DNA of 64,000 bases, from contig JACPNG010000009.1 in the NCBI GenBank assembly GCA_016185605.1, positions 53,838 to 117,837 of the forward strand. Direction: 5' to 3'. How positions within the stretch are numbered: the stretch's first letter is position 1; every line of letters begins with the position of its first letter. A model generated the notes under the pieces. That model worked only from the letters and a program-made list of their open reading frames with translations. It was not told the DNA's origin and made no database searches. The translations under genes were made by a program, and so were the position numbers. This document shows positions 22,191 through 38,533 of the stretch, one piece after another. This stretch comes from Candidatus Woesearchaeota archaeon. GTDB lineage: Archaea > Nanobdellota > Nanobdellia > SCGC-AAA011-G17 > JACPNG01.

Positions 22191-22952
22191 ATGTTCACCA
22201 AACAGGAGATTAATCTAATAAAAGAGTTAACACTAAATGAGCTTAAACTTAAATATAGAAATTCTTTTCTTGGTTTTTCATGGTCTTTTTTAAAGCCATT
22301 ATCTATGTTAATGATACTATACCTAGTTTTTAAGGTTTTTATTAAAATAGATGTCAATAATTATGCTTTGGTTTTGTTATTAGGAATATTAATATGGAAT
22401 TTCTTTGCAGAAAGTACATCTTTTGGTTTAAGTTCTATAAATTCAAAAGCCAGTATAGTTAAAAAGATTAATTTCAAATATGAGATATTGATTATAAGTA
22501 ACTGTTTAACTTCTTTTTTATCTTTTTTATTAAATTTTTTGGTCTTTATTATAATCCTACTATTTGCCAAAGGCATGCCATCATTATTAAGTATTTATAT
22601 TATAATTCCAATAATAGAGATATTCCTAATATCTTTAGGCTTATCTTTTATTCTGTCAATTCTTTTTATAAGATATAAAGACATAATACATATTTGGGAT
22701 ATTTTTTTACAAATAGGTTTTTGGATAAGTCCAATAGCCTATCCAATAGACCTTATTCCTTTAGAGTATAAAAAAGCTTATATGTTAAATCCATTAGCTA
22801 ATATTATAACTGCCTCAAGAGATGTAATATTAAATAATAGACCCCCTTCATTAAGTTTGATATTTACAAGTTTGATAACAACATTAGTCATTTTGGTATT
22901 TGGTTATTTGATTTATAGATATAATCATAAGAATATAGGGGAGTATTTATGA
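22191..22952 (+). CDS. ABC-2 type polysaccharide exporter permease (Wzm/TagG-like)
   Basis: 253 aa, 6 TM helices, ABC-2 family organisation. Overlaps the downstream ATPase by 4 nt. Confidence 0.8.
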   Translation: MFTKQEINLIKELTLNELKLKYRNSFLGFSWSFLKPLSMLMILYLVFKVFIKIDVNNYALVLLLGILIWNFFAESTSFGLSSINSKASIVKKINFKYEILIISNCLTSFLSFLLNFLVFIIILLFAKGMPSLLSIYIIIPIIEIFLISLGLSFILSILFIRYKDIIHIWDIFLQIGFWISPIAYPIDLIPLEYKKAYMLNPLANIITASRDVILNNRPPSLSLIFTSLITTLVILVFGYLIYRYNHKNIGEYL

Positions 22953-24187
22953 TAGAAGTAAAAAATTTGAGTAAATCATTTAGAATACAAAATGAAAAAA
23001 CGGATACTTTATTTGACGTAATAAAAAATATAAGAATGTCAAAAAACTATACCAATATCTGGGCTCTAAAAAATATAAACTTTAATGTGAAAAGGGGCGA
23101 ATTTATAGGAATAATAGGAGAGAATGGCTCTGGAAAAACAACTTTATTAAAAATAATAGCCAAAGTATTAAATCCTACAAAGGGTTATGTAAAAACAGAA
23201 GGCAGAATAGTACCGTTTTTAGAGCTTGGTCTAGGTTTCCATGATGAGTTAACCGGCAGAGAAAATGTTTACTTATATAGCCAAATAATGGGTTTAGACA
23301 AAAAAGAAGTAAACGAAAAAATAGAAGATATAATAAGATTCTCAGGAATAAAAAATTTCATTGATGCTAAATTAAATACTTATTCTTCTGGAATGAAAGT
23401 AAGATTAGCATTTTCTACAGCTATCCAAACTAATCCAGATATAATTTTAGTAGACGAGGTTTTAGCTGTAGGAGATATGAAATTCCAACAAAAATGTTTT
23501 GATATCTTCAGAAAATTTAAAGAAGATAAAAAAACTGTTTTATATGTGTCTCATGATATGAGTTCCATAAAAAAATTTTGTGATAGAGTTATACTATTAA
23601 ATAAAGGGAGACAAATAATAATAGATGAGCCAGAATATGTAACTGATAAATATTTCTATAGTATGATAAGAGATAATGAAAAAAATAGAATAGAATTTAG
23701 AACGGAAGCCAATAAGCCTGACTTTAGACGCATTGAAGATTTGAAAAAAACAGTTAATATTAGGTGGGGCACAAAAGAGATTGAGATTACTAAAGTAGAA
23801 CTATTTAATAAATTTAATAAAAAGAGCAATATGTTTGTTAGTGGCGATCCTTTAAAAATAAGGATACATTATAAAAAGAATGAAGAAATTAAAAACCCCG
23901 TATTTGGCATAGGAATTTTTTATGAAAACGGAAAACATTGCTTTGGCACAAATACACAAGTAGAAAAATATAAGATAAACAAAATTAATGAAAGAGGATA
24001 CATTGATTTTTTTATAAGAAAGATTATTATGTGGGAAGGAAATTTTTATTTGAATGTTATGGTACACGACGATAAACACTATCACTATGATTGGCATAAT
24101 AAAACATATATGTTTAAAGTAGTAAAACTTAATAATTATGATCAAGGTCTATTTAATTTAAATTGCAAATGGAAGATTTCAAAATAA
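22949..24187 (+). CDS. ABC exporter ATP-binding protein (Wzt/TagH-like) with a C-terminal glycan-binding extension
   Basis: 412 aa. Walker A GENGSGKTT. Signature YSSGMKVRLAF, the TagH/Wzt-type variant. A roughly 170-aa C-terminal extension follows, as in Wzt substrate-recognition domains. Confidence 0.88.
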   Translation: MIEVKNLSKSFRIQNEKTDTLFDVIKNIRMSKNYTNIWALKNINFNVKRGEFIGIIGENGSGKTTLLKIIAKVLNPTKGYVKTEGRIVPFLELGLGFHDELTGRENVYLYSQIMGLDKKEVNEKIEDIIRFSGIKNFIDAKLNTYSSGMKVRLAFSTAIQTNPDIILVDEVLAVGDMKFQQKCFDIFRKFKEDKKTVLYVSHDMSSIKKFCDRVILLNKGRQIIIDEPEYVTDKYFYSMIRDNEKNRIEFRTEANKPDFRRIEDLKKTVNIRWGTKEIEITKVELFNKFNKKSNMFVSGDPLKIRIHYKKNEEIKNPVFGIGIFYENGKHCFGTNTQVEKYKINKINERGYIDFFIRKIIMWEGNFYLNVMVHDDKHYHYDWHNKTYMFKVVKLNNYDQGLFNLNCKWKISK

Positions 24188-25122
24188 GAGGTCCATATTG
24201 GTTAGTCTATTTTCCAACAGACTCATGTAATTATAAGTGTAAACATTGCTATTTAGAAAATATTCCGGAAAAAGATGAAATGGATTATGAAGAAGTGATG
24301 AGGATATTTTCTAATTCTAGTCTATTAAAAAATACAAGAATTGGGATTTCTGGCGGAGAGCCATTTACAAAAAGGGACATAGTAGATATATTAACTGGCT
24401 TATCTAAAATGGGATATAAATTAGAGATTACAACAAACGGGGCATTTCCAGAAAAGATAGGGGATTTTCTGATGAATTCAAATACAACCAAAGTTGACAT
24501 TGCGATTTCTATAGATGGTTTAAAGGACATTAATGATGAGATAAGAACTAAAGGGGGATTTAATAAAGCAATTGAAAGTATTAAAATTATAAAAGATATT
24601 GGAGTAAATCTATTACAAGTCAATACAGTAATTCAAAAATTAAATATTAACCAGTTAGAAGAGATAAAACAATATTTTTCTTCATTTGTAGACCATCATT
24701 TCTTTATACCATTATTAAGTACAAGAAATAATAGAGTTGATTATACAGACAAAGAAATTGAAAAGATCTTAGAATATATGCATTATAAATTTGACATTAA
24801 ATATTTAATAACAAAGGGGGAATTTAGGATTAAAGATTGTCATTCAGGCCAAACAACTTGTTTTATAGATCCTACTGGAAAAGTGTTTACATGCATGACT
24901 GGGCAAAGATATTTTTTTCCAAGAAAAAATTATTTCATGGGAGATTTAAGAAAAATTAATTATAGTTTTGACGATTTATGGATATCTAAGCAGGCAGAAA
25001 TTGCCAGAAAAGATGTTAAAAAATGCGAGGGATGCTATAATGCCTGTGAAGTTCATAGAGAAAAATCCTGGCATGGATTAGATGATAATATAGATTGGGA
25101 GATTATTTCAAAAAAATGGTAG
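24163..25122 (+). CDS. radical SAM protein (SPASM/twitch-like C-terminus)
   Basis: 319 aa. CNYKCKHCY (CX3CX2C) near the N-terminus. C-terminal Cys cluster CEGCYNACEV. Confidence 0.8.
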   Translation: MQMEDFKIRGPYWLVYFPTDSCNYKCKHCYLENIPEKDEMDYEEVMRIFSNSSLLKNTRIGISGGEPFTKRDIVDILTGLSKMGYKLEITTNGAFPEKIGDFLMNSNTTKVDIAISIDGLKDINDEIRTKGGFNKAIESIKIIKDIGVNLLQVNTVIQKLNINQLEEIKQYFSSFVDHHFFIPLLSTRNNRVDYTDKEIEKILEYMHYKFDIKYLITKGEFRIKDCHSGQTTCFIDPTGKVFTCMTGQRYFFPRKNYFMGDLRKINYSFDDLWISKQAEIARKDVKKCEGCYNACEVHREKSWHGLDDNIDWEIISKKW

Positions 25123-25661
25123 ATTTATTTAAAGTAAATAACGTTAATATAAATTTTAAAGAAATAGAGTTAGAGATAAACAAAAGAGTAAATGAGGGGG
25201 GAAAAAGATTTGATGATTATGATAATGATATACAAGATTTTGAAATTGAAAAAATAGAAGTTTCTGATAATTTAGTTAACCATTGTAATATAAAAATTCC
25301 TAGAGAGATAACTTCCCATAGACCGGTTATAGGCAATACGCTAATAAAAATAAGGCAGATACTAGATGATGAGATAAGAAGGTCTTTAGATCCTATGGTA
25401 AATAGACAGATAGAAATCAATATGAATATAGTTAATAGGTTAAATAAAATAGAAAGAATAACAGAAGAGAATGAGATAAGAACTAAGGGATTAAATAAAA
25501 CACTAGATAGAGTAGAAAGAATAACAGAAGAGAATGAGATAAGAACTAAAAGGCTAGAAAAAGTATTTGATGAGATAATTAATCAAACAAACTCTAATAT
25601 AAAAGAGATTTTTAAACTAAATCGAAAGTTAAAGGAAAAAAAATGGAAATTAGCCAGATAA
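25095..25661 (+). CDS. hypothetical coiled-coil protein with an internal 20-aa tandem duplication
   Basis: 188 aa, charged and helical. Contains IERITEENEIRTKGLNKTLD / VERITEENEIRTKRLEKVFD. Confidence 0.5.
   Translation: MGDYFKKMVDLFKVNNVNINFKEIELEINKRVNEGGKRFDDYDNDIQDFEIEKIEVSDNLVNHCNIKIPREITSHRPVIGNTLIKIRQILDDEIRRSLDPMVNRQIEINMNIVNRLNKIERITEENEIRTKGLNKTLDRVERITEENEIRTKRLEKVFDEIINQTNSNIKEIFKLNRKLKEKKWKLAR
25451..25546 (+). repeat. two 36-nt exact copies (agaaagaataacagaagagaatgagataagaactaa) spaced 60 nt apart inside a coding sequence
   Basis: Seen directly at 25451-25486 and 25511-25546. Confidence 0.8.
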
Positions 25662-27706
25662 CAGCGTCTATAACTAGAGATGGAGATTCGATAAGCAATT
25701 ATTTATTAGAGATAAGAAATCTTTTAATTGAACAGGGATTTGAATCTTACATCTATGTTGAAAATAAAGACTTCTTCTCCTATTTTATAAAAGATTATAG
25801 GGATTGTAAACCAAAAAAAGACGATATAATAATATTACATGCCACGATTGGTAGTAATATAACAACTTTTTTCAAGAATTTAAGATGTAAAAAGATAATG
25901 ATATATCATAATCATACTCCGGCAGAGTTTTTTAGAGATATAAATAATGAAAACTTTAGATTGCTTAATAGTTATAATGAAGATCTTAAATCACTAATTA
26001 ATCATGTGGATTATGTTATAAGTGACTCTGAATTTAATAAACAAGATTTGGAGAAAATAGGCTTTAAAGACATAAAAGTCAGTCCAATATTCATTAATTT
26101 TAACAGATTCAATGATATGAATAATTATATTTTTAATAAGTTCAATGATAATTATATTAATATAATTCATGTTGGTAGGATAATACCCAATAAAAAAATA
26201 GAGGACATTATAAAGATATTTTATTATTATAAAAATTTTATAAATTCTAAATCTAGATTATTCTTAATTGGAAGTATTTCCAGTGATGCTAAAAGATACT
26301 ATAATGCATTAACAAAATATATAAATAAACTGAATTTAAAGGATGTTTATTTTTTAGGCAATATTAACAATAAAGATTTAACAGCGTACTACAAACTGTC
26401 AAATATATTTTTACATATGAGCGAACATGAGGGCATGGGTTTACCGTTAATAGAAGCGATGTATTTTAATATACCAATAATAGCTTTTAATTCCACCGCT
26501 ATACCCTATACATTAGGCGATTCAGGAATATTAATAAATTATAAATATCATAAAAAAATAGCTGAATTAGTTAATATTATATTAAATAATATGGGGCTTA
26601 AAGATAAGATAATAAAGATTCAAAGAGATAGATTAAAATTCTTTGATACTGAAAATTTAAAAGAACAATTTTTGCAACATATAATAAATGTAAAGAATTT
26701 AGATTTGCCTTATGATAATAATATAATAGATTATTCAGAAAATTCTAAAGATAATAAATTAAACATAGTTAATAAGTTTGGAGATATTATAAAAAACTTA
26801 AGAAAAAAAGATGAAAATAAAACAAATTATGATAGTTATAATTTTATATTTAATCATCCGGAGTCTATAACAGAAATAAAAATTCTTTATATACAACCTA
26901 AAGGCGTTGGCGATATTATAATGTCTACTCCAATATTAAGGGCTTTAAAAAAGAGATATCCTTATGCACTTATAGATTTTGTAGCTGATAAATACTGTAA
27001 AGATGTAATAATAAATAATCCAAATATTAGAAATGTTTATTCTTTTGATAAACTTCCTAATTTACAAGAATATATACTGGTGCTTAGGCCATATCTAAAA
27101 ACACAGTATATGTTAAATTGGCAAGATACTGGAATACATATAGTTGATTTATATGCTTCTTTATGTGGAGTTAAGTTAGATAGTTACAAAACTGAGATAT
27201 CTCCACTACAAGTAGATTTACAAGAATATGGTATAGATGAAAAAGAAGATTATATTTGTTTACATACACAAAGTTCACTAAAGTATAAAGATTGGTCTTA
27301 TTTTAAAGAGTTGATAAAGAAATTAAAAGATGAATTTAATATTGTAGTAATAGATGAACAACAACATAATTATAAATATACAATACAATTGCCACAAAAT
27401 ATAAAATTAAGAGAAAAAGCCTATATTATTAGTAAAAGCAAAATGTTAATAGGTATAGACTCTATGGGAATACATATGGCCTGTGCATTTGACATTCCGA
27501 CAATTGCTTTATATGGAAATACTCTTCCAGAATTATGTAAACCTTTATCTAATAAAAATCTTATAACAATAGAACCTAAAAAAAGATGTATAGAGGGTTG
27601 GCATCATTTTTGTAAAGAAGATAATTATTGCATAAATAGTATAAGTGTAGATAATGTATTAGAAAAAGTAGATTTTATTTTAAAAAAGAATCAATTAGTA
27701 GCGTAA
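25643..27706 (+). CDS. bifunctional glycosyltransferase: N-terminal GT4 domain fused to a C-terminal GT9 (heptosyltransferase-family) domain
   Basis: 687 aa. GT4 motif EGMGLPLIEAMYFNIPIIAF at about aa 260-280. GT9-like start IKILYIQPKGVGDIIMSTPILRALKKRYPYALIDFV at about aa 410, which matches the LSSLGD(V/I)...P...AL motif of WaaC/WaaF. Confidence 0.78.
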   Translation: MEISQITASITRDGDSISNYLLEIRNLLIEQGFESYIYVENKDFFSYFIKDYRDCKPKKDDIIILHATIGSNITTFFKNLRCKKIMIYHNHTPAEFFRDINNENFRLLNSYNEDLKSLINHVDYVISDSEFNKQDLEKIGFKDIKVSPIFINFNRFNDMNNYIFNKFNDNYINIIHVGRIIPNKKIEDIIKIFYYYKNFINSKSRLFLIGSISSDAKRYYNALTKYINKLNLKDVYFLGNINNKDLTAYYKLSNIFLHMSEHEGMGLPLIEAMYFNIPIIAFNSTAIPYTLGDSGILINYKYHKKIAELVNIILNNMGLKDKIIKIQRDRLKFFDTENLKEQFLQHIINVKNLDLPYDNNIIDYSENSKDNKLNIVNKFGDIIKNLRKKDENKTNYDSYNFIFNHPESITEIKILYIQPKGVGDIIMSTPILRALKKRYPYALIDFVADKYCKDVIINNPNIRNVYSFDKLPNLQEYILVLRPYLKTQYMLNWQDTGIHIVDLYASLCGVKLDSYKTEISPLQVDLQEYGIDEKEDYICLHTQSSLKYKDWSYFKELIKKLKDEFNIVVIDEQQHNYKYTIQLPQNIKLREKAYIISKSKMLIGIDSMGIHMACAFDIPTIALYGNTLPELCKPLSNKNLITIEPKKRCIEGWHHFCKEDNYCINSISVDNVLEKVDFILKKNQLVA

Positions 27707-28190
27707 CGCTCTAAGATCCTTTCAATTATTCTTGTAGTAGAAAATCCTTTTTCTACTTCGAATGTTTTATACTTGCCTCCTAATCCTTCTATAAGTTCTC
27801 TCTCATCTTTCATTCTTTTCTCATCATAAGTTCCGCCTTTTATATGTATATCTGGCTTTATTCTCCTTAAGTAATCAAGAGGGTCATCTCCATAAAAAAT
27901 TACAACATAATCAACATATCTTAAATAAGTTAGAACTTTAGCCTTCTCTTGTTGTTCAATAATAGGTCTTTTTTCTCCCCCTTATTTCGCCTAATAGAAT
28001 CATCACTATTAACTAAAACAATCAGAATATCTCCTTCACTTTTAGCCTTTGAAAGAAGATTTACATGTGCTGAGTGTAATATGTCAAAACTTCCGTTAGT
28101 AGTAACAACTATTTTTTGTTCTAATTTTAAATTTCTAGAAATTTGCTCCATTTCTTCAATTGTTTTAATTCTATCTTGTATAGCTTCCAT
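27692..28190 (-). pseudogene. HldE-domain-II/RibL-like cytidylyltransferase-fold nucleotidyltransferase with a 1-nt frameshift at an A6 run (about 27966-27972)
   Basis: The N-terminal part (86-aa ORF) has the HxGH motif [13 protein letters not shown]. Adding one A in gagaaaaaagacc restores ...[54 protein letters not shown]...STTRIIERILERYATN, which aligns with the E. coli HldE C-terminal domain. Confidence 0.6.
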
Positions 28191-28965
28191 ACTCTTTTCT
28201 TTCTATTACCTCATCTGTATAATAATCATTTAATTGAATATTCCAACTTACTTTTGATTCTATAAATGCAATATCACTAATCTTTAAAGGTTCTGAAAAT
28301 AAAATTCCATTTCTTATATCTTGGTTTACTTCTTTAAGAAATTCTATATAATTTTTGAAATTTTTATTTAATTCTATAAGATTATAGAATCTCATAAAAG
28401 TAGTGTGTATAGTTTTTGGAATATCCGGTTTTCCATCTCTTTTATCAAAATAAAAATTCTCATTTGAGAGTAGCCCTTGAGATATTTGACTACGTATATT
28501 AAAAATCTCCCCTTCATTATCTAATGGTTCATAAGTCATAATTCCCAGAGGAGATAGCACTCTTACTTTTAATGAGAATGAACTAAAATTAATTGATCTA
28601 AAAACTTCTAAATATTCTTTATAATATTGAAATTTATTCTTATCTGGTTTATAATAAAAACCATCTTTTAAACTACTATTTCTAATAATTACACATAAAG
28701 AGATATGTGTCTTATCATTTCCATAAATGAATTGGCTAGGTAGAATTTTTCTGAGTTCATAAATTAAAACATTAAAATCTTTTTGTAAACTATGTGTTCT
28801 AAATAATGGAATCCCAGCAACGATACTAATCCCAAACGGGGTTACTTTGTGATCTATAGATTTAGCAATATCTGGTGTAAATCTCCATAAGCGTCTCTCT
28901 TCCTCACTAATTCTTTTTCTATAATCAGATACTAAATTTGAATGTATTAATCTTTCCAAACTCAT
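28171..28965 (-). CDS. hypothetical protein with two H-phi-[ST]-phi motifs (2H phosphoesterase-like; low confidence)
   Basis: 264 aa. HISL at about aa 87 and HTTF at about aa 187, spaced about 100 aa apart as in LigT/CPDase 2H enzymes. Overlaps the upstream nucleotidyltransferase pseudogene by 20 nt, so it is probably in the same operon. Confidence 0.4.
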
Positions 28966-29038
28966 CTTAATTAAGGTATATATTTATCTATCATTAAATT
29001 TAAATAGTTAATAAGAAAAAATATTTAAAAGCTTATCG

Positions 29039-29449
29039 GTGGATTTTATGGAGGATATACTAAATAAGGTATTAAGTAATGATGAAATAGCTAAAAAATC
29101 TAGAGGATTAAAAAAACAAGGGAAAATCATAGTAATGGCTAATGGAAGTTTTGACCTTCTTCATATAGGTCATATAGATCTTTTAAGGCAAGCAAAAAGA
29201 AAAGGTGATATTCTTATTATTGCCATAAATAGTGATTTATCTATAAGAACTTATAAAGGGAATGATAGACCAATTATACCTGAAAAAGAGAGGGCACTTA
29301 TGCTAGCCTCTCTATTCTTTGTTGATCATGTTACTATATTTAATGAAAGTAAAGCATTAAATATTATAGAAAAGATTAAACCTGATATTTTAGTCAAGGG
29401 GATAAGGCCTGATCCAGAAAGATTAGAAGAAGAAAAAAGAATTAGTTAA
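29039..29449 (+). CDS. HldE-domain-II-like sugar-phosphate nucleotidyltransferase, copy 2; its C-terminal tail is cut off by a frame change at an A6 run
   Basis: 136 aa. MANGSFDLLHIGHIDLL (HxGH), INSDLSIRTYKGNDRPIIPEKER, DILVKGIRPDPE. Strongly similar to E. coli HldE-II (VNSDASTKRLKGDSRPV...LLVKGGDYKPEE). The missing conserved tail LFGGKIEYVKESISRSTSDIIEDIRG is encoded in the next frame right after the stop. Confidence 0.7.
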   Translation: MDFMEDILNKVLSNDEIAKKSRGLKKQGKIIVMANGSFDLLHIGHIDLLRQAKRKGDILIIAINSDLSIRTYKGNDRPIIPEKERALMLASLFFVDHVTIFNESKALNIIEKIKPDILVKGIRPDPERLEEEKRIS

Positions 29450-29960
29450 TTTATTTGGAGGCAAAATAGAATATGTCAAAGAATCTATTAGTAGATCTAC
29501 TAGTGATATAATCGAAGATATTAGGGGACAAAAATCTCGTTCTGAAGATGATAGGATTTATGATAAAATGCCAGAGGTGTCAATAAAAATATTAAGTAAT
29601 GATGAAATAGCTAAAAAATCTAGAGGATTAAAAAAACAAGGGAAAAAAGTTATAATGGTAAACGGCGTATTTGATATGCTCCATATAGGGCATATTGGTT
29701 TTTTGAGAAAAGCAAAAGAAAAAGGGGATGTTTTATTTGTGGCTGTTAATAGCAATCAATCTGTTAAATCTTACAAAGGGGAGAATAAACCAATTATACC
29801 TGAAAAAGAGAGGGTACTTATGCTAGCCTCTCTATTCTTTGTTGATCATGTTACTATATTTAATGAAAGTAAAGCATTAAATATTATAGAAAAGATTAAA
29901 CCTGATATTTTAGTCAAGGGGATAAGGCCTGATCCAGAAAGATTAGAAGAAGAAAATGTA
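29039..29960 (+). repeat. tandem segmental duplication of a nucleotidyltransferase gene (blocks about 29068-29125/29590-29647 and about 29271-29440/29801-29960 are near-identical)
   Basis: Direct comparison of the two gene copies shows long identical runs, including about 170 nt encoding PIIPEKER(A/V)LMLASLFFVDHVTIFNESKALNIIEKIKPDILVKGIRPDPERLEEE. Confidence 0.8.
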
Positions 29961-30032
29961 ACAACATCTAGTGGACAAATTATAGATAAAATAAGGGGTG
30001 TCAGTAGTGAGGGTATTAATAATAGTCAATGA
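29568..30032 (+). CDS. HldE-domain-II-like sugar-phosphate nucleotidyltransferase, copy 3 (recent tandem duplicate of copy 2)
   Basis: 154 aa. MVNGVFDMLHIGHIGFL. The stretch PIIPEKER...RLEEE is identical at nucleotide level to copy 2. Confidence 0.75.
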   Translation: MPEVSIKILSNDEIAKKSRGLKKQGKKVIMVNGVFDMLHIGHIGFLRKAKEKGDVLFVAVNSNQSVKSYKGENKPIIPEKERVLMLASLFFVDHVTIFNESKALNIIEKIKPDILVKGIRPDPERLEEENVTTSSGQIIDKIRGVSSEGINNSQ

Positions 30033-31410
30033 TTTTATCATAGAACCTTTAGGTTTAATGTCAATAATTGCAGTCCTTAAAAAGGAGAGTCATAAAGTTG
30101 AACTTCTAAAAATAAACTCCAGAAGAAAAGAATTTGGTTCTGCTAGAAATGATGAGGAGATATTTAATTTTTTGGAGAAATTTTCACCAGATTTGATATT
30201 GTATAGTACTACAACAGGCATGCATAAATTATATCTGAATATAAATAAAAAACTGAAAGAGAGATTTAATTTCATATCAGTTTTTGGCGGAATGCATGTT
30301 TCTTTCTTTCCAGACTTTATTAATGAAGAAAGTGTTGATATTATATGTATTGGTGAAGGAGAAGAAGCAATAAGTGAGTTAGTTAATAATCTGGAAAGTG
30401 GCGAAGAAATAATAAACATAAGAAATTTATGGATTAAAAAGGGCCATCAATTATATAAAAATAATTTAAGACCATTAATGGAAGATTTGGATAGTCTACC
30501 GTTTCCTGACAGAGAAATAGTCTATAGGTATGGACTCCATAAAAGAAATCCAATAAAAAACTTCATAACAACAAGGGGTTGCCCATATAAATGTTCTTAT
30601 TGTTTTAATGACGGCTTTTATAAGCTTTATAACCTAAATGGTAACAGAAGAGTTAGATCGAGAGGCGTAAATAATATAATAAGCGAAATTAATGAAGTAA
30701 AAAATAAATATAAATTAAAGTTAGTTTATTTTCAAGATGATATTATCACATTAAATGAGAACTTCAAAGAGTTAATGGAAGAATATAGAAGAGAAATTAA
30801 CATCCCTTTCCATGCACATATAAGACCAGATTTAGTTAATGATTATACAATTAAATTATTAAAAAAGGGTGGTTGTCTTAGTGTTACAATGTCTGCCGAA
30901 ACAGCCAATGACAATACAAGAAATAATATGATTAATAGAAACATGTCTAAACAGAGTATATATCTGGCTGCTAAGCTACTCCATAAATATGATATAAAAT
31001 TCAGAATAGAAAATATGTTGGGATTGCCTAATGAAACTTTAAAAGATGCATTTGATACATTAGAAATGAACATAAAATGTAAACCAACAATTGGTTGGGC
31101 ATCGATATTTCAACCATATCCTGGAACAGAATTATTTAATTATACTAGAGATAATAACTTGTTTAACGGGGAGGTTGATACTTTTAACAATTCTTTTTTT
31201 GATAACAGTGTTTTGGATATAAAAAACAAAAAAGAAGTAGAGAATCTTCAAAAACTATTTTCTATAACTGTCTCTTTTCCCTTCTTAAAGCCCATAACTA
31301 AACAGCTCATAAAACTGCCGAAAAACAATTTATTCAATTTTGTGCATGACGGATGGAAAAGTTACTGTTTTGATAATAAATTATATAAAGTAAATGGTTT
31401 TAAGAGTTAA
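29998..31410 (+). CDS. B12-binding-domain radical SAM protein (class B)
   Basis: 470 aa. The N-terminal Rossmann-like domain RVLIIVNDFIIEPLGLMSIIAVLKK is typical of the cobalamin-binding domain. CX3CX2C in TTRGCPYKCSYCFN. Confidence 0.8.
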   Translation: MSVVRVLIIVNDFIIEPLGLMSIIAVLKKESHKVELLKINSRRKEFGSARNDEEIFNFLEKFSPDLILYSTTTGMHKLYLNINKKLKERFNFISVFGGMHVSFFPDFINEESVDIICIGEGEEAISELVNNLESGEEIINIRNLWIKKGHQLYKNNLRPLMEDLDSLPFPDREIVYRYGLHKRNPIKNFITTRGCPYKCSYCFNDGFYKLYNLNGNRRVRSRGVNNIISEINEVKNKYKLKLVYFQDDIITLNENFKELMEEYRREINIPFHAHIRPDLVNDYTIKLLKKGGCLSVTMSAETANDNTRNNMINRNMSKQSIYLAAKLLHKYDIKFRIENMLGLPNETLKDAFDTLEMNIKCKPTIGWASIFQPYPGTELFNYTRDNNLFNGEVDTFNNSFFDNSVLDIKNKKEVENLQKLFSITVSFPFLKPITKQLIKLPKNNLFNFVHDGWKSYCFDNKLYKVNGFKS

Positions 31411-31413
31411 AAC

Positions 31414-32910
31414 ATGTATAATTATCTAAAAAACAAAATTTTCCCATCATTTCTATTTATATTAATCATAATCTCTCTTCTATTAGTTGGCAACTCATTA
31501 ACTGAATTTTTTACCAAAGGCGATTATGCTAAATTAGAAGAGGAAAAATATATCATATTAAATGAAGATTACAAGTGTATTGATTGTAATGTTATAATAA
31601 TTGGAATTGACACGCTAAGGGCGGATCATTTAGGCTATAATGGGTATTATAGAAATACTTCCCCGAATATAGATGAATTTTCTAATGAAGGTGTAGTTTT
31701 TAAAAATACGTTTTCTCAGGCACCCTCCACATTGCCTTCTTTTGCAACAATCTTTACTTCATTATATCCAATAATGCATAAAGCACAAATTGAAAATGGG
31801 CCTGTTGCGCTAAGTAATGAATCTAAAACTATAGCTGAAATATTAAAAGAAAACGGATATTATAATATAGCATACACTGGTGGCGGTCAAGTGGCTAAAG
31901 AATTTGGTTTAGGTCAAGGATTTAATATTTATGAAGGCAATGTATGTTATAATTATATAACTGCCCCATTAATTAAAAAAGGTGTAATTGCTGACCTTAA
32001 ATGTCTAGAAGATAGCATTGAAATCGTGATGCATAATATCAATTTAAATAAAGACAGAAAATTCTTTTTATTTTTCCATAATTATGTTACACATTATCCC
32101 CATGTTTTATCAACTAATAAATATTCTATATTTACAGATTACAATAATATAAGAGAAGAATATTCTAACATAATAACCGATCCTTTAGTAGTAAAGAATA
32201 AATTAGTGGAAGATATAAATAATGGCAAAATTAAGATGAATAATGAATTAAAAGATTATATTATTGGAAGATACGATGATACAATATATTACATGGATGA
32301 TTGGATAGGATATTTATTGGAAGAAATAAAAAAATCAGATATCATGGATAATACAATAATCATATTTCTAGGAGATCATGGCGAAGAATTTACAGAACAT
32401 GGGATGATTGGATTACATAGCCACACCCTTTATGATGAACTTTTGCATGTGCCTCTGATAATAAAATATCCAAAATCTAAACCAAAAGTTATAGATCAAC
32501 AAGTAAGATTAATTGATGTTATGCCAACAATACTAGATATATTAAATATAAGCATAAAAGAAGAATTACAGGGAGAGACACTAATACCCATAATTCAAGG
32601 TAAAGATAAGAAACTGCCAGTATTTAGCTCACTAGAGTATACGAGTGAAGGTCAACCATTAAAGATATCAATTAGAAAAGACAGCTTTAAACTGATCTAT
32701 GATCTAAAATATAAAAGAACAGAACTTTTTGATCTTTCTAAAGATAAAAATGAACTTAATAATGTAGCAAGTAAGCACAAAGCTAAAGCTAACGAGTTAA
32801 AAAAGGAATTATTGGAATGGTATGAAAACAACAAAAATTATAATATGGAGAAAGAAAAAATACATGACGCTACATTATTGGAATTGAAATCTTTAGGTTA
32901 TATAAATTAA
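31414..32910 (+). CDS. membrane-anchored sulfatase/alkaline-phosphatase-superfamily enzyme with Thr at the nucleophile position (a phosphotransferase such as LtaS/EptA is more likely than a sulfatase)
   Basis: 498 aa. N-terminal TM. Metal-binding start IIIGIDTLRADHLGYNGY. The nucleophile segment aligns as STLPSFATIFTSLYP against canonical C[ST]PSRxxxLTGR, with Thr in place of Cys/Ser and no Arg. Confidence 0.75.
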   Translation: MYNYLKNKIFPSFLFILIIISLLLVGNSLTEFFTKGDYAKLEEEKYIILNEDYKCIDCNVIIIGIDTLRADHLGYNGYYRNTSPNIDEFSNEGVVFKNTFSQAPSTLPSFATIFTSLYPIMHKAQIENGPVALSNESKTIAEILKENGYYNIAYTGGGQVAKEFGLGQGFNIYEGNVCYNYITAPLIKKGVIADLKCLEDSIEIVMHNINLNKDRKFFLFFHNYVTHYPHVLSTNKYSIFTDYNNIREEYSNIITDPLVVKNKLVEDINNGKIKMNNELKDYIIGRYDDTIYYMDDWIGYLLEEIKKSDIMDNTIIIFLGDHGEEFTEHGMIGLHSHTLYDELLHVPLIIKYPKSKPKVIDQQVRLIDVMPTILDILNISIKEELQGETLIPIIQGKDKKLPVFSSLEYTSEGQPLKISIRKDSFKLIYDLKYKRTELFDLSKDKNELNNVASKHKAKANELKKELLEWYENNKNYNMEKEKIHDATLLELKSLGYIN

Positions 32911-32997: not shown

Positions 32998-34362
32998 ATG
33001 GTCTCTATAATTGAAATTAAAAATAACTCAAGAAAAAGAAGAATTAAGATAATATTATTAATAATAGCTGTATTATTCTTTTTTAGTCCTTTTTTTATTA
33101 CATACTCAAATGAGATAAATAAACTTTTTTTTACTTTACCATATATACATCCTGGAGATGAACCACACTATTTAGCTATGACTAGTAGTATTATAAAGGA
33201 TTTTGATTTAGAAGTAAAAAATAATTATGAAAATGCTGTAGCTGGCAAAGGAGATACTGGTTTTAAATACAGATATGAAAGAATCAGTCGTCATGCAATT
33301 TTGGTAGATGGAAAAACCAATATTAGATATAATCTAGATGATATTTATAACCTAAGTGGTTCTGGATTCTCGCTAAACGGAGAATCCCCCACTATACGTG
33401 ATGATCTAGAAAATACTGATACTGCTAATTTAAAAGAACGACCTACACGTTATATAGGACTGCCTTTTTTTAGCTCTATTTTTTTATGGCCTTTTAGAAA
33501 TTCTTTAAATTTAGATTCTATTGCAATTTTATTGAGTGCTATTGTTTCTCTTATTGGCTTCTACTTTTTATATTTAGTATTAATTCATTTTAAAAATAAT
33601 GAAAATAAAGTGTTATTCATAACAATTATCTTTATTTTCACAACACAACTATGGTTTTACTCAAAAACATTTTATCCTGACCCCTATATAGCTTCTTTTT
33701 TAATTATTTCTTACTATTTTTTTATTGTTAAAAATAAAGTTGCTATCTCCGGCATTCTATTGGGCTTAGCATTCCTCATGAAATATAATATGATTATTTT
33801 CCCAGCTATATTTGCATTATACCTATTAAAAAATAAAAGGTTTAAAAAGTTTTTTCTTTTTAGTTTAACCATTGGGATTTTTGCATTTCTTCTTTTAATT
33901 TACAATTTTATAATGTGGGGGAATTTATTATTCTCTCATCTTCATTTTATGTACGGAAATATTATTTCTGGGATTTTAGGACTGCTCTTTTCATTAGATC
34001 ATGGTTTAATTATATTTACACCTCTCCTTATATTCTCATTTTTTGGCTTTTATCAATTCTATAAACAAAAAAAAGATGAAGCTATATTTACTTTCATACT
34101 TTTTTTTACATATCTATTGATAATGTCTGCATTTTTAGAATGGCATGGGGGCTTTTCTTATGCTACAAGACACTTAATTCCAATAATGCCTTTATTATCT
34201 ATCCCTCTTCTGTTTTGGTATGATTCAAATAGAAGTAAAAGCTTGAAAATGATATTTTTTATATTAGTTATTATATCTTTTATTTTTAGTTTATATTCAG
34301 TTTTTGCTGATCAAAGTTATGTTTTAGACAAACCGCCCTTATTTCCATATATAAAATTTTAG
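32998..34362 (+). CDS. GT-C-fold membrane glycosyltransferase (PMT/ArnT-like; DE motif GDEPHY in the first extracytoplasmic loop)
   Basis: 454 aa, about 11 TM helices. HPGDEPHYLAMT resembles the PMT DE(V)HF / ArnT DEARY loop-1 motif. Confidence 0.5.
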   Translation: MVSIIEIKNNSRKRRIKIILLIIAVLFFFSPFFITYSNEINKLFFTLPYIHPGDEPHYLAMTSSIIKDFDLEVKNNYENAVAGKGDTGFKYRYERISRHAILVDGKTNIRYNLDDIYNLSGSGFSLNGESPTIRDDLENTDTANLKERPTRYIGLPFFSSIFLWPFRNSLNLDSIAILLSAIVSLIGFYFLYLVLIHFKNNENKVLFITIIFIFTTQLWFYSKTFYPDPYIASFLIISYYFFIVKNKVAISGILLGLAFLMKYNMIIFPAIFALYLLKNKRFKKFFLFSLTIGIFAFLLLIYNFIMWGNLLFSHLHFMYGNIISGILGLLFSLDHGLIIFTPLLIFSFFGFYQFYKQKKDEAIFTFILFFTYLLIMSAFLEWHGGFSYATRHLIPIMPLLSIPLLFWYDSNRSKSLKMIFFILVIISFIFSLYSVFADQSYVLDKPPLFPYIKF

Positions 34363-34373
34363 CCACAAAACAT

Positions 34374-35063
34374 ATGAAATTATCAATAATTATACCAGTT
34401 TATAACGAGGAAAATACTATTGGTGAAATAATAAAGAGAGTAAAAGAAGTAAAATTTCCAATAAAGAGAGAAATTATTATTATTAATGATGGTAGTAATG
34501 ATAATACTTCTAATATACTTAAAAAAATTAGAGGAATAAATGTTATAGAATATAATAACAATATGGGAAAGGGCTTTGCTATAAAGCAGGGTATTAATAA
34601 TATTAGAGGAGATATAATAGTAATTCAAGATGCTGATCTAGAATATGATCCAAATGAAATACCCTCGTTATTAGAGCCGATAATAAAAAATGAAACGAAC
34701 ATAGTATATGGATCTAGAATGCTTAGAAAGAATAAGATATCATATTTTCATTTTTATTTAGGCAGTAAAATTTTGACATTCTTAACAAAATTATTATATG
34801 GTGTTTTAATAACTGATGTGGAAACTTGTTATAAATTATTTAAGGCGGATATAATTAAGAAAATAGATATAAAGGCCATGGGTTTTGATTTTGAATCAGA
34901 AGTAACTGCAAAACTATTAAATATGAAAGAAAAGATCATCGAACTGCCTATAAGCTATACCCCAAGAAGAATTAATGATGGGAAAAAAATAAGATTAAAA
35001 GATGGTGTGATTGCTTTGGGAGTGTTAATAAAATATAGAATAGATTACTATAACAAAAAATGA
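34374..35063 (+). CDS. GT2 glycosyltransferase (DPM1/GtrB-like polyprenol-phosphate sugar synthase)
   Basis: 229 aa. LSIIIPVYNEENTIGEII and DADLEYDP. Confidence 0.85.
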   Translation: MKLSIIIPVYNEENTIGEIIKRVKEVKFPIKREIIIINDGSNDNTSNILKKIRGINVIEYNNNMGKGFAIKQGINNIRGDIIVIQDADLEYDPNEIPSLLEPIIKNETNIVYGSRMLRKNKISYFHFYLGSKILTFLTKLLYGVLITDVETCYKLFKADIIKKIDIKAMGFDFESEVTAKLLNMKEKIIELPISYTPRRINDGKKIRLKDGVIALGVLIKYRIDYYNKK

Positions 35064-36430
35064 TAAAGAATTTAGATTCAATGAAAATTAGAATATGTTT
35101 AATTAATGTTACTAATAAAGATAAAATGGTTATGAATAAAGACCTTAATGGTGGATTCGGAACATGTGATGATTATGGGAATAGCATAACATCTAAAATA
35201 ATAAGGTTTATAAAAAGCAGAACAATAAAGCTCCCGATAATAAGTTACGCGTTTCTGCAGGCAATATTTAAACAACAAGGACATGAAGTTGAGTATTATG
35301 AAGATAACTTTCCGGATAAATCTAAAAATTTTGATTTGATTCTTATATATGGTACAATAGTTGATTTTAAAAATGAAAATATGGTGTGTATAAAACTAAA
35401 ACAAATGTTTCCTACTGCAAAGATTGGAATATTTGGACCTTTTCCATCAGTTATGCCAGAATTATTTAAAAGTGGGGATTTTGTTATAGTCGGAGAGGCA
35501 GAAGCATATTTTATGAATGATTTTAAACATTTAGATAATTTAAGAGGATATGTAAAAGTTTCATCTCAAACTAATATGGAATCCTTACCAAGTCCTTGTT
35601 ATGACGGCTTTCCGATAAATAAATATTCATATTATCCAGCCATTAGAAAAAAACCACTTCTTACTCTTCAAGCAAGTAAAGGATGTCCATATAGCTGCAG
35701 ATATTATTGTGTATATGGAAATTATCAAGGAGTTAAAATAAGACAAAGATCTCCAAGAAGAGTAGTGGAGGATATGATATATCTTAAGAAGAATTACAAT
35801 GTTAAAGGAATACAATTTAGAGATCCTACATTTGGGTTTAATAGAAATTTCATTCAGGAATTTTGCAATGAATTAAAGCATAAGAACTTAAATATAGACT
35901 GGGGGATGGAAACTAGATTGGACCTATTAAATAAAAATAATATTAAAATGATGTATGATGTCGGACTTAGAAATATAAATGTCGGGATAGAAACTATCAA
36001 TTTATATGTAGCTAAAAAAAACAGAAGAAAGTTGATAGAAACAAATCATCAAGAGGAGATAATAAAATATTGTAAGAGATTAGGTATAAATATATCAGCT
36101 TTTTTTATTATAGGATATGAAGGTGATACAAAGGAGACAATAGAAAACACAATCAAATATGCAATAAAAATCAATGCTCCATTGGCTAGATTCTCAGTAG
36201 CTACGCCATATCCTAGCACTGAATATTATGAACTTCTTGAAAAAGAAGGAAGATTATTAATAAAAGACTTTGAAAGATATAATCAGTTTACATTAGTGTA
36301 TAAGCATAAAAACTTAAATGAAGACGAAATTAGAAATTTATTAGAAAAATCCTATAGGGATTATTATTTTAGAATGTCTTACATTTTATCTCTAATAATG
36401 CGGAAAGTAAGGATGGCATCGGTTTTTTAA
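35060..36430 (+). CDS. B12-binding-domain radical SAM protein with a non-canonical CX3CX3C cluster motif
   Basis: 456 aa. Reads QASKGCPYSCRYYCVYG, i.e. gga tgt cca tat agc tgc aga tat tat tgt, in place of the usual CX3CX2C. Confidence 0.72.
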   Translation: MIKNLDSMKIRICLINVTNKDKMVMNKDLNGGFGTCDDYGNSITSKIIRFIKSRTIKLPIISYAFLQAIFKQQGHEVEYYEDNFPDKSKNFDLILIYGTIVDFKNENMVCIKLKQMFPTAKIGIFGPFPSVMPELFKSGDFVIVGEAEAYFMNDFKHLDNLRGYVKVSSQTNMESLPSPCYDGFPINKYSYYPAIRKKPLLTLQASKGCPYSCRYYCVYGNYQGVKIRQRSPRRVVEDMIYLKKNYNVKGIQFRDPTFGFNRNFIQEFCNELKHKNLNIDWGMETRLDLLNKNNIKMMYDVGLRNINVGIETINLYVAKKNRRKLIETNHQEEIIKYCKRLGINISAFFIIGYEGDTKETIENTIKYAIKINAPLARFSVATPYPSTEYYELLEKEGRLLIKDFERYNQFTLVYKHKNLNEDEIRNLLEKSYRDYYFRMSYILSLIMRKVRMASVF

Positions 36431-36480: not shown

Positions 36481-37482
36481 ATGATTAACATAAAAGAGTT
36501 TATATCCATAATAATTCCAGCTTATAATTCAAAAGACACAATAGAAAAATGTCTTACTTTTATATTCAAATCTAAATATAAGAATTTCGAAGTTATTGTC
36601 GTAGATGATTGCTCAACCGATAATTTATATTTAACAGCTAAAAAATTCCCATGTAAACTAATAAGATTAAAAGAAAGATTTGGACCTGCCAAAGCCAGAA
36701 ATGTCGGAGCTAGTAAGGCTAAAGGCAACATTTTAGTTTTTCTTGACTCAGATTGTATTGTCGGTGAAAATTGGTTAAATAGTATAGTTAGAAATTTCAA
36801 AGAATACAACATTGGAGCTACTGCAGCCCAATATAATGATTCAATAAGTAAAAGTTTTATAGCTAAATTTGCTTTTTATGAACTTCTCTTTAGAGAAAGA
36901 AAATTTGATAAATTCGTAAATACAATTCCTTCCTGTAATTTTGCTTGTAAAAAAGAAATTTTCGAAGAAATTAATGGGTTCTCTGAAGATTTTAGGGGTG
37001 CATCAGAAGATTTAGAGTTTTCTTATAGATTAGGAAAAATAACTAAAATATTATGGGATCCTTCTATAAGCGTAACTCATCATTCCAGAAATAAAATGAA
37101 TGAATATATCAAACAACAGTTTATTAGTAGTAGAGATGATGTTCCATTATTTATAAGACAACCAAACTTATTATTAGAAGACACATTTGAAGATAAAACT
37201 AACTATTTAGAAGTAATATCCCTGGGATTATTTCTTACATTTGTATTCTTATCTTTTTTTATGTTGATAAACCAGTATATCATATTAATGCCATTAATTT
37301 TTACATTCATATTAAATATAAATTTTATGAATTTTATAAGAATTAAAGAAAATATTATTTTTTCCATTAAATCTATATTTTTAGTCTATCTAAGAGACTT
37401 CGTATGGTTTATGGGGGCTTTAGTTGGTCTATTTAATGGAATGAGGGAATTGTTTAGTATAAAAAATGTTAAAGTACACTAA
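36481..37482 (+). CDS. GT2 glycosyltransferase with a C-terminal membrane segment
   Basis: 333 aa. [36 protein letters not shown] helices at the C-terminus. Confidence 0.8.
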   Translation: MINIKEFISIIIPAYNSKDTIEKCLTFIFKSKYKNFEVIVVDDCSTDNLYLTAKKFPCKLIRLKERFGPAKARNVGASKAKGNILVFLDSDCIVGENWLNSIVRNFKEYNIGATAAQYNDSISKSFIAKFAFYELLFRERKFDKFVNTIPSCNFACKKEIFEEINGFSEDFRGASEDLEFSYRLGKITKILWDPSISVTHHSRNKMNEYIKQQFISSRDDVPLFIRQPNLLLEDTFEDKTNYLEVISLGLFLTFVFLSFFMLINQYIILMPLIFTFILNINFMNFIRIKENIIFSIKSIFLVYLRDFVWFMGALVGLFNGMRELFSIKNVKVH

Positions 37483-38533
37483 GAGCTTAATATTTAAAAA
37501 TAATGAATGTCCTATATATTTAACATACTTTGTAACATCTAAATGTAATTTAAAATGCCAACATTGTTTCTATTGGGATTCCCTAAACAAAATAAACAAC
37601 GAGCTAAGTCTTGAAGAGATAGAAAGATTTTCTAAGAGCATTAAAAATTTATTGGTTTTATCCCTAACTGGTGGAGAACCATTTTTAAGAAGTGATTTAG
37701 ATAGAATAGTTAAGATATTATATAACAATTCTAAACCTAAGATAATTTCAATAGTTAGTAATGGGTATTTTACGGAAAGATGTTTAGAGATCACTAAAAG
37801 TATATTAGACAACTGTAGGAATATTTCACTTATAATAGAACTATCAATAGATGGTCTTGAGGAAAATCATAATCTAATAAGAATGAATAATGACTCATTT
37901 AAAAATGTTTTACAGACATTTTATAAACTTAAAAAACTGAAGAGAAAACACCCAAATCTTAATATTGGCATAATCACTACATTTAATAGTTTTAATCAGT
38001 ATAGAATGTTAGAGATAATGGGTTTTGTAAAAAAAGAGTTAAATCCTGATTCTTTTACATTATCTTTAACTAGAGGCAATCCGAAAAACATAGAAAGTAA
38101 GAGAATAGATATAGAACAATATAAGAAAGTAACAAGAATAAAGAATAAAATATTTAAAAATGGCTATAATAATTTTTACTTATCGAGTTTAAGGAATGCT
38201 AATGAAAAAGTTATAGAAGATGTCGTATATAACACTATAAAATATAACAAATTTCAAACAGAATGTTATGCTTCTTCTTTAAACGCAGTCATGTCTCCAG
38301 AAGGAGATATTTTAGGATGTGAAACTTTAAATAATAAAATAGGAAATATAAGAGATTTTGATTACGATTTCAAAAAACTATGGGCTATTGAGAAAAGAAT
38401 AAACATGTCTAAATCAATAATAAATAATAAATGCTTCTGTACTCATGAGTGCAATATTTCTGTTAATACCTTATTTAATATAAAACATTATCCAAAATTA
38501 ACCTTAAAATTAGTTGATGGTATAATAAAATGA
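37466..38533 (+). CDS. radical SAM protein with a SPASM-like C-terminal Cys cluster (anSME-like N-terminus)
   Basis: 355 aa. YLTYFVTSKCNLKCQHCFYW resembles the N-terminus of anaerobic sulfatase maturase and related SPASM enzymes. C-terminal cluster CFCTHECNISV. Confidence 0.75.
   Translation: MLKYTKSLIFKNNECPIYLTYFVTSKCNLKCQHCFYWDSLNKINNELSLEEIERFSKSIKNLLVLSLTGGEPFLRSDLDRIVKILYNNSKPKIISIVSNGYFTERCLEITKSILDNCRNISLIIELSIDGLEENHNLIRMNNDSFKNVLQTFYKLKKLKRKHPNLNIGIITTFNSFNQYRMLEIMGFVKKELNPDSFTLSLTRGNPKNIESKRIDIEQYKKVTRIKNKIFKNGYNNFYLSSLRNANEKVIEDVVYNTIKYNKFQTECYASSLNAVMSPEGDILGCETLNNKIGNIRDFDYDFKKLWAIEKRINMSKSIINNKCFCTHECNISVNTLFNIKHYPKLTLKLVDGIIK

Follow-up and report, generated by a model that had tools for sequence, protein, structure and literature searches.

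Characterised members of glycosyltransferase family 9 (GT9 in the CAZy classification) mostly use ADP-heptose as the donor, and multi-domain glycosyltransferases of the WbdA type serve polysaccharide pathways that depend on ATP-binding cassette (ABC) transporters. DPANN archaea live in attachment to the cells of their hosts, and almost no studies have addressed the glycans on their surface. Enzymes of nucleoside diphosphate (NDP)-heptose synthesis occur outside the bacteria as well: as far as the summaries of Tang et al. 2024 go, archaeal enzymes make ADP-heptose (PMC11573728, PMC11461863), and the same summaries, together with a docking study of BpHldC, give (F/L)XXGXSTT as the hallmark of heptose nucleotidyltransferases (PMC7993394, PMC11461863). 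Here we analysed a stretch of 64,000 nucleotides from a Candidatus Woesearchaeota archaeon (contig JACPNG010000009.1, positions 53,838 to 117,837; hereafter the window), in which positions 25643-30032 encode a GT4-GT9 fusion protein beside three small nucleotidyltransferase genes, copies A, B and C, related to HldC and to domain II of HldE (HldE-II). The locus represents a module common in DPANN archaea, here rearranged and in part decayed. It is probable, on balance, that in this glycan module an HldC/HldE-II-type enzyme makes an NDP-sugar, for which NDP-heptose is the best candidate, and that GT9 uses it.

In the proposed mechanism, the nucleotidyltransferase would make NDP-heptose from heptose-1-phosphate and ATP or another nucleoside triphosphate, and GT9 would use the resulting NDP-sugar. 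GT9 is fused behind GT4 in this Woesearchaeota clade, giving what would be a two-site enzyme that extends a lipid-linked glycan by two sugars in the cytoplasm. The glycan would then be exported by Wzm/Wzt and processed further by GT-C enzymes. The identity of the sugar as heptose is one that we infer.

The GT4-GT9 fusion protein

The fusion protein is encoded by an intact single open reading frame (ORF) of 687 aa on the plus strand (25643-27706), in which a low-complexity linker separates a GT4 domain (residues ~55-330, nt ~25805-26632) from a compact GT9 domain (residues ~412-687, nt 26876-27703). The GT4 half matched PF00534 (Glycos_transf_1) at 86.3 bits over residues 166-328, above the gathering score of 26.4. 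The GT9 half matched PF01075 at 44.4 bits over residues 505-659 against a gathering score of 22; the GT9-like domain proposed in the first-pass annotation, which had been made from the sequence alone, thus passes the threshold of its hidden Markov model (HMM). The GT9 N-terminal motif IKILYIQPKGVGDIIMSTPILRALKKRYPYALIDFV, which had been placed in the C-terminal half, was indeed found there at residues ~412-448 and aligned with the N-terminus of E. coli WaaF in both a PDB search and tblastn, while the N-terminal part of this half also matched WaaF residues 2-53. E. coli WaaF was likewise the best solved structure for the GT9 half (PDB 1psw, E=2e-13). Among the NCBIfam models, the best for the C-terminal half was heptosyltransferase II (TIGR02195, 76.1 bits, cut-off 134.6); TIGR02201 gave 70.6 bits (cut-off 170.2) and TIGR02193 gave 58.8 bits (cut-off 185.3).

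We aligned WaaC, WaaF, the window protein, four relatives of the fusion and four DPANN proteins in which GT9 stands alone. Residues equivalent to WaaC D13, K192, D261 and H266, which we take to be catalytic or donor-site residues, are conserved in the window protein as well as in all four fusion relatives and all four stand-alone proteins, while the position matching WaaC E222 is not conserved. The profile scores of both halves, the WaaF match and the conserved WaaC-equivalent positions therefore establish the fusion as real, and its architecture was found in seven protein clusters of 59-100% identity.

Compared with WaaF and WaaC, the window protein passes the same Pfam threshold for GT9, and its G-x-G-D, K-x-W and D-S/T-x-G-x-H motifs align with theirs. 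It differs in being fused behind a GT4 domain, in its shortened acceptor-side domain and low equivalog scores, and in belonging to an archaeon without lipid A, where it is encoded within a Wzm/Wzt operon. The resemblance to WbdA-type enzymes lies in the two GT-B domains in one polypeptide, in the co-encoded Wzm and Wzt, the latter bearing a C-terminal glycan-binding domain, and in the nearest relatives of the GT4 half, which are multi-glycosyltransferase proteins of 700-1100 aa; in contrast, the second domain is GT9 instead of GT4 or GT2. Because of these relatives and of the Wzt_C domain in Wzt, the fusion may well be a chain-building (polymerase-like) enzyme. That its GT9 half uses ADP-heptose as the donor is indicated indirectly, by the coupling to HldC-like genes.

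This coupling is seen in the closest fusion relatives compared (loci L011/L012, L013 and L098), where the gene order is wzm, wzt, a radical S-adenosylmethionine (SAM)/SPASM gene, a gene for 153-159 aa, the GT4-GT9 fusion and a single nucleotidyltransferase gene of the subfamily termed type 2 below. The last gene is intact in the relatives (160-164 aa; that of L098 is cut by the contig end), and its start overlaps the stop of the fusion. Such start/stop overlap supports a functional link between the GT9 and HldC-like genes.

In a Pacearchaeote (L009:10808-12893), GT4 and GT9 are encoded by two adjacent genes, GT4 first, which overlap by 23 nt and lie beside genes of the HldC-like and GDSL types. 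This pair is possibly the unfused counterpart of the Woesearchaeota fusion; the GT4 parts are only ~21% identical.

Two types of HldC-like nucleotidyltransferase genes

Copies A, B and C all matched PF01467 (CTP_transf_like), and the best NCBIfam model for each of them was TIGR02199 (rfaE_dom_II), with 160.8 bits for A and 150.2 for B after repair of their reading frames and 132.5 for C. The TagD model TIGR01518 gave 49.6, 42.7 and 39.3 bits respectively, below its cut-off of 165.4, and in the profile comparison TIGR02199 led it by >100 bits for A and B. Searches against solved structures agreed: HldC (5x9q) scored 84-91 bits, ECT 63-72, the RibL-like Thermoplasma protein 3glv 48-54 and TagD/TarD 36-39, and 5x9q was the best match for type 1 and type 2 alike. 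We found 108 homologs of the small genes, mostly intact proteins of ~150-185 aa, with 39-47% identity between the intact DPANN proteins and E. coli HldE-II. A grouping of the small genes with HldE-II/HldC, and not with TagD, ECT or the RibL-like 3glv, is therefore supported by these comparisons. In the choice that the first-pass annotation had raised as its caveat, it favours HldE-II/HldC over TagD (132-161 bits on TIGR02199, over nearly the whole model, versus 39-50 on TagD) and over the RibL-like 3glv protein.

The housekeeping alternative, in which the small genes would be RibL-type FAD synthetases or TagD-type glycerol-3-phosphate cytidylyltransferases unrelated to the GT9 protein, shares the fold and the HxGH motif with our assignment and can point to weak matches (20-36 bits) with the models of FAD synthetase and CoaD (pantetheine-phosphate adenylyltransferase). 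With those scores so low, TagD far below its cut-off, 3glv well behind HldC and the coupling to the GT9 gene conserved, we regard it as extremely improbable. A neighbour-joining tree grouped type 2 with a bootstrap value of 100% and type 1, including A, with 70%. As its deep nodes were without support and the partial 3glv sequence was placed unreliably, this tree says nothing on horizontal transfer or on RibL.

Among the HMMs and among the solved structures, HldE-II/HldC thus comes first for all copies and for their intact relatives, with a full-length match. The window genes differ from HldE-II/HldC in being stand-alone archaeal genes without any intact copy, in missing the equivalog cut-off and in having no kinase domain or GmhA/GmhB nearby.

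Copy A (27691-28190, minus strand) is a type-1 gene whose frame is disrupted, as seen by six-frame translation. It is called as an ORF of 86 aa (27930-28190, minus strand), the zero frame stopping at 27930, and its C-terminal 91 residues, including IKGGTYD and GGKY...GFSTTRIIERI, are encoded in the -1 frame, which extends to 27691. A run of six adenines (A6, 27969-27974) is the lesion; the homolog at L004 has A4 there, in the codons GAG-AAA-AGA-CC. The same frameshift recurs in an independent Logan assembly of run SRR12113424 (contig L001, 100% identity over 501 nt). Repaired A is 59-66% identical to intact 159-171-aa proteins of Nano-, Pace- and Woesearchaeota. It is like HldE-II/HldC in its HxGH-type motif (HSAH) and in NSD, KG, KGG and the near-consensus xxxGFSTT (VEKGFSTT), of which only KGG and VEKGFSTT need the repair.

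Copy B (29039-29567, plus strand) is a frame-disrupted type-2 gene, orthologous to the one found behind the fusion in the relatives. Its zero-frame ORF (29039-29449, 136 aa) ends in EEEKRIS and a stop codon. One extra adenine, in a run that is A6 here (29433-29438) and A5 in L013, causes a +1 shift; the C-terminal 40 residues are hidden in the +1 frame together with the GGKIEYVKESISRSTSDIIEDI segment, and this frame runs without a stop into copy C. The ortholog in L098, 81% identical, has EEEKELIS read in frame. The motifs of B are HIGH, NSD, KG, KGI and ISRSTS.

Copy C (29568-30032, plus strand) is a type-2 ORF of 154 aa with more extensive damage. An in-frame deletion of 48 nt (16 conserved codons) at ~29956 has removed the LGGK..E.. 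strand of the other aligned homologs, no GG...STT segment is left, and TIGR02199 covers C only over model positions 5-124 of 144. Its motifs are HIGH, NSN in place of the family NSD, KG, KGI and a degenerate last motif. The ancestral stop is lost, and C consequently overlaps the next gene.

None of the three copies is therefore an uninterrupted ORF of ~150-185 aa over the whole domain. What had been annotated as three paralogs turned out to be three damaged copies of two different subfamilies, and in this respect the locus is mostly cautionary. The family assignment made for them holds, and the list of HldE-II motifs given for them is a composite across reading frames and copies, because the C-terminal motifs of A and B are off-frame, C has no GG...STT segment, and B and C read VKGIRPD and not KGGDY.

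B and C are a mosaic of identity. They share ~60 identical nt (29075-29130 and 29596-29650) and a second stretch of ~170 nt with 167/169 identical positions (29270-29437 and 29790-29957), between which ~130 nt are only ~66% identical. This pattern, with the near identity of the 3' part, points to gene conversion between tandem paralogs. The shared stretches might instead suggest that the tandem is an assembly artefact, two strain variants of a single type-2 gene having been stitched together through common repeats; in addition, the independent Logan contig L001 stops at window position ~29099, within the first shared stretch, and look-ups of the exact products of B and C returned no other contig on record. 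However, ~130 nt of unique sequence (29440-29570) join the C-terminal part of B to the start of C, a junction that repeat collapse does not make, and the divergent middle part and the separate lesions of each copy fit old paralogs with patches of gene conversion. An artefact is thus very unlikely, and we read B and C as tandem copies.

Type 1, to which A belongs, is DPANN-wide and carries the motifs KGG(S/T)(W/Y/F) and LEEGFSTT. Type 2 is a rare subfamily that comprises B, C, the genes of L011, L013 and L098, and P0164, and forms one 50%-identity cluster among 1.84 billion representative proteins. It is invariantly KGI at the position where all 108 other homologs have KGG. According to a docking study of BpHldC, the motifs KGG, EXTP and (F/L)xxGxSTT are predicted to bind heptose-1-phosphate or ATP (PMC7993394). 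With these three predicted binding motifs altered in type 2, its substrate may differ.

Related modules, donor sugar and state of the genes

A GT9 gene lies within 10 kb of an HldC-like gene at 10 of 14 distinct archaeal (DPANN) loci and at 9 of 72 bacterial loci. The pairing of the two, described in the first-pass annotation as unexpected in an archaeon, is thus a recurrent DPANN module, and archaeal NDP-heptose enzymes were published in 2024 (PMC11573728, PMC11461863). A bacterial-type sugar-nucleotide and GT9 module is accordingly a regular part of DPANN glycan islands, and one Woesearchaeota clade has joined GT9 to GT4. From its gene content, the Micrarchaeota locus L030:8861-16076 (JBFYLP010000006.1) is a complete canonical ADP-heptose cluster in an archaeon, with GmhA, GmhB, HldC, a kinase, an HldD-like epimerase and a WaaF-like GT9 encoded within 7 kb. 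GmhA and a kinase are present at L033 and L035, while L020 and L017, of the Nanoarchaeota type, have an operon of GT9, NUDIX, a PfkB kinase fused to a cupin, a HAD phosphatase and HldC.

The PfkB-cupin fusion of the latter operon, with a kinase of the heptose type, is encoded at L020:8154-9458 (Nanoarchaeota, NZCA01000003.1) and L017:6854-7945, and its C-terminal part matches Cupin_2 and Lyx_isomer. No SIS-type GmhA was found in this operon locus, and the cupin could be a non-SIS sugar-phosphate isomerase that replaces GmhA. At L004:8986-9909, L005:3630-4610 and L007:9003-9926, a protein of 307-326 aa with a GASxxxHEHxH motif and a DUF4922 match of 28.2 bits (gathering score 23.6) is divergently paired with the HldC-like gene, and a B12-binding radical SAM enzyme of 600-660 aa lies beside it in these type-1 modules. 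A PDB sequence search with the DUF4922-like protein gave chance matches only, and neither a kinase nor a phosphatase was found within 10 kb of the three modules. This arrangement may exchange nucleotides or supply the sugar-1-phosphate by another route. Stand-alone GT9 genes at L004, L005, L007, L017 and L020 are flanked by genes for a QueC-like PP-loop enzyme (TIGR00364, 130 bits, under the cut-off), a 63-aa ORF, a GT2 protein of ~300 aa and a nucleoside 2-deoxyribosyltransferase-like protein, with an additional NUDIX hydrolase in L017 and L020. This set recurs from locus to locus and has a character of nucleotide metabolism.

Heptose is the likely sugar for type 1, judging from the pathway genes found beside it. 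For type 2, which has altered motifs and no kinase, GmhA or GmhB near it, heptose is one candidate. The stand-alone archaeal nucleotidyltransferases of Tang et al. 2024 are a close parallel, and the LEEGFSTT of the type-1 DPANN proteins fits the hallmark motif. The summaries of that work name Methanococcus maripaludis and mention neither DPANN, GT9 partners nor a GT4-GT9 fusion; unlike the enzymes described in them, the window copies are damaged and type 2 is without the hallmark. Our literature searches combining ADP-heptose, heptosyltransferase or GT9 with DPANN or archaea found nothing specific.

Several observations weigh against an NDP-heptose module that is decaying or switched off. The equivalog cut-off of TIGR02199 is 181.5 bits, and neither A, B and C nor their intact DPANN relatives (150-171 bits) reach it; the GT9 domain is under every heptosyltransferase I, II and III equivalog cut-off and has ~276 aa against the usual 298-372. 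Type 2 has KGI for KGG, ESKA for EXTP and (N/H)xxTxSTG for (F/L)xxGxSTT. The first-pass annotation had proposed a search of the genome for gmhA, a heptose-7-phosphate kinase and gmhB; within the scope covered here, none of the three was found in the 64-kb window by tblastn with E. coli and archaeal queries, nor within 10 kb of the fusion in L011, L013 and L098. As regards the lesions, A and B keep every conserved motif, and their shifted frames are free of stops for ~90 and ~42 codons at 28% GC (guanine plus cytosine), so that both may still be expressed through slippage or be switched on in a fraction of the population. That the fusion should be intact beside a dead donor pathway would also be odd unless another copy exists elsewhere in the genome.

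The altered motifs, the scores below all equivalog cut-offs, the lack of pathway genes near any fusion-type locus and the confinement of type 2 to a single cluster would also fit an enzyme for another substrate. Type 2 would then act on a sugar-1-phosphate of another kind or on a phospho-alcohol, CTP or UTP perhaps serving as the nucleotide; the group so activated would be transferred by the compact GT9, and the heptose signature would be a family resemblance only. BpHldC itself accepts beta-glucose-1-phosphate as a surrogate substrate (PMC7993394). On the other hand, type 2 still scores best on HldC (90.7 bits, versus 71.5 for ECT and 36-38 for TagD), its TIGR02199 match spans model positions 4-143 of 144, its partner belongs to GT9, and genes for a heptose kinase and phosphatase accompany the related type-1 module. 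We consider the non-heptose substrate a tentative possibility, clearly behind NDP-heptose.

Whether the donor genes are dead may be asked separately. A and B carry one lesion each and retain every motif, which points to recent inactivation, and the sequenced population seems to have an inactive or switched-off donor step, provided that the lesions abolish activity. A and B might alternatively be alive, their A-run frameshifts being bypassed by ribosomal or transcriptional slippage, reflecting phase variation or arising from consensus errors in the assembly. Both single lesions lie within A6 runs and leave the catalytic motifs and the long open shifted frames, and no other gene of the window has one family split over two frames, the scan for further split genes having returned ordinary operon overlaps only. 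An archaeal glycosidase gene, Sulfolobus fucA, is known to use programmed -1 frameshifting at an A-rich heptamer. Yet the A6 run of A was reproduced in an independent assembly; A needs a -1 and B a +1 shift, so a single slippage mechanism does not explain both, and no canonical X XXY YYZ heptamer lies in the correct phase at either site. A6 is moreover short for phase variation, with 305 A/T runs of at least 6 in the window, the relatives have these proteins in a single frame, and the deletion, the NSD-to-NSN change and the stop loss of C are not reversible by slippage. That A and B are alive is therefore unlikely, and an inactive or switched-off donor step remains the preferred reading.

A combined proposal goes further than either alternative: the type-2 enzymes and the shortened GT9 would be a pair for an NDP-sugar other than classical ADP-heptose, and the A-run frameshifts would form a reversible surface-glycan switch in an episymbiont. 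We hold this to be quite doubtful; if the pair were confirmed, it would be a new donor specificity for GT9, and in archaea. If type 2 merely uses another substrate, the known chemistry of both families widens. If heptose is correct, NDP-heptoses, potent agonists of vertebrate innate immunity, would have a widespread source in the environment in these archaea, and the GT9 family would gain acceptors other than lipopolysaccharide. The altered motifs of type 2, the GT4-GT9 fusion and the source of the sugar-1-phosphate are the points of most interest.

Rearrangement and the surrounding glycan island

The window differs from the relatives in that the end of the fusion is altered, an inverted pair of a 2H-like gene and A abuts the fusion, and the type-2 gene is present twice. 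The C-terminus of the fusion reads KKNQLVA, compared with a conserved KCK(I/V)-(S/Y) in the relatives, and the 3' ends of A and of the fusion, on opposite strands, overlap by 16 nt. A rearrangement is supported by this altered end and by the overlapping 3' ends on opposite strands. In the sequence of events that we propose, a fragment of a second module type (the 2H-like gene and type-1 copy A) would have been inserted next to the 3' end of the fusion in reverse orientation, and the resident type-2 gene would have been duplicated in tandem to give B and C, parts of which were then homogenised by gene conversion. DPANN glycan islands thus appear to be undergoing active rearrangement, in which inversion and duplication act together with gene conversion and frameshifts in homopolymers. 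Run SRR12113424 holds two fusion-bearing Woesearchaeota, the window strain (L001) with the damaged copies and the L011/L012 strain with one intact type-2 gene.

The 2H-like gene (HYX17_01900, 28171-28965, minus strand) lies upstream of A and overlaps its start. Its product of 264 aa gave no match in Pfam or NCBIfam, and nothing usable in Pfam at E<=5. Two HxS/T motifs, H87-I-S and H187-T-T, are invariant in 6 homologs. The AlphaFold model was of moderate quality, with a predicted local distance difference test (pLDDT) score of 67 and a predicted template-modelling (pTM) score of 0.70. Its 30 best Foldseek matches were nearly all 2H enzymes (AKAP18, Usb1, CPDase, LigT), with probabilities up to 1.0 and template-modelling (TM) scores of 0.42-0.57. 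With two HxT/S motifs and a duplicated alpha/beta lobe in the model, the protein is assigned to the 2H phosphoesterase superfamily as predicted from its fold. A homolog directly precedes GT9 in L017. We also considered this gene as the counterpart of the 307-326-aa protein with the HxHxH motif beside the type-1 genes and rejected it, as the two have no similarity and their motifs differ.

The operon that includes the fusion is headed by the export genes wzm and wzt (22191..24187), in an order kept in L011 and L013. Wzm (22191-22952, plus strand) is an ABC-2 permease (PF01061, 54 bits), and Wzt (22949-24187, plus strand) is an ABC ATPase (PF00005, 84 bits) with a Wzt_C glycan-binding domain (PF14524, 105.5 bits). 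They are followed by a radical SAM/SPASM enzyme of 319 aa (24163-25122, plus strand; PF04055 66.9 bits, PF13186 26.4 bits), whose ORF overlaps those on both sides and which is kept directly upstream in L011, L012 and L013. A protein of 188 aa with an internal repeat and a coiled-coil-like appearance comes next (25095-25661, plus strand), its stop overlapping the start of the fusion; Pfam gave nothing above noise for it and nothing usable at E<=5. ORFs of 153-159 aa occupy its position in L011, L013 and L098.

Directly 3' of copy C lies the gene of a B12-binding radical SAM enzyme of 470 aa (29998-31410, plus strand; PF02310 62.1 bits, PF04055 75.9 bits); such genes adjoin HldC-like genes also in L004, L005, L007, L009 and L011. 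It is followed by a sulfatase/LtaS-type phosphotransferase-like protein (31414-32910, plus strand; PF00884, 171 bits) and a PMT_2 GT-C membrane glycosyltransferase (32998-34362, plus strand; PF13231, 27.5 bits), the latter type being found in the L004, L005 and L007 modules too. These two proteins probably perform downstream extracytoplasmic steps.

The window has a GC content of 25-35% and contains archaeal housekeeping genes, among them those for an ATP-dependent DNA ligase, FtsZ and GatD. The glycan island (window positions ~10000-46000) has 24-29% GC compared with 33-35% in the housekeeping flanks, on the DNA ligase/FtsZ side and the Suf operon side, and this low GC is consistent with an exchangeable island. 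Five radical SAM enzymes are encoded in it (24163-25122, 29998-31410, 35060-36430, 37466-38533 and 38530-39879): one of the SPASM type, one B12-binding and three consecutive beside GT2 genes, a DegT aminotransferase and a carbamoyltransferase. Such a load of radical enzymes is unusually heavy for a surface-glycan locus of a reduced genome. At the island edge we also observed a gene for an AbiEii-type nucleotidyltransferase toxin (44542-45844, minus strand; PF08843, 79 bits), with a partner of 200 aa encoded upstream.

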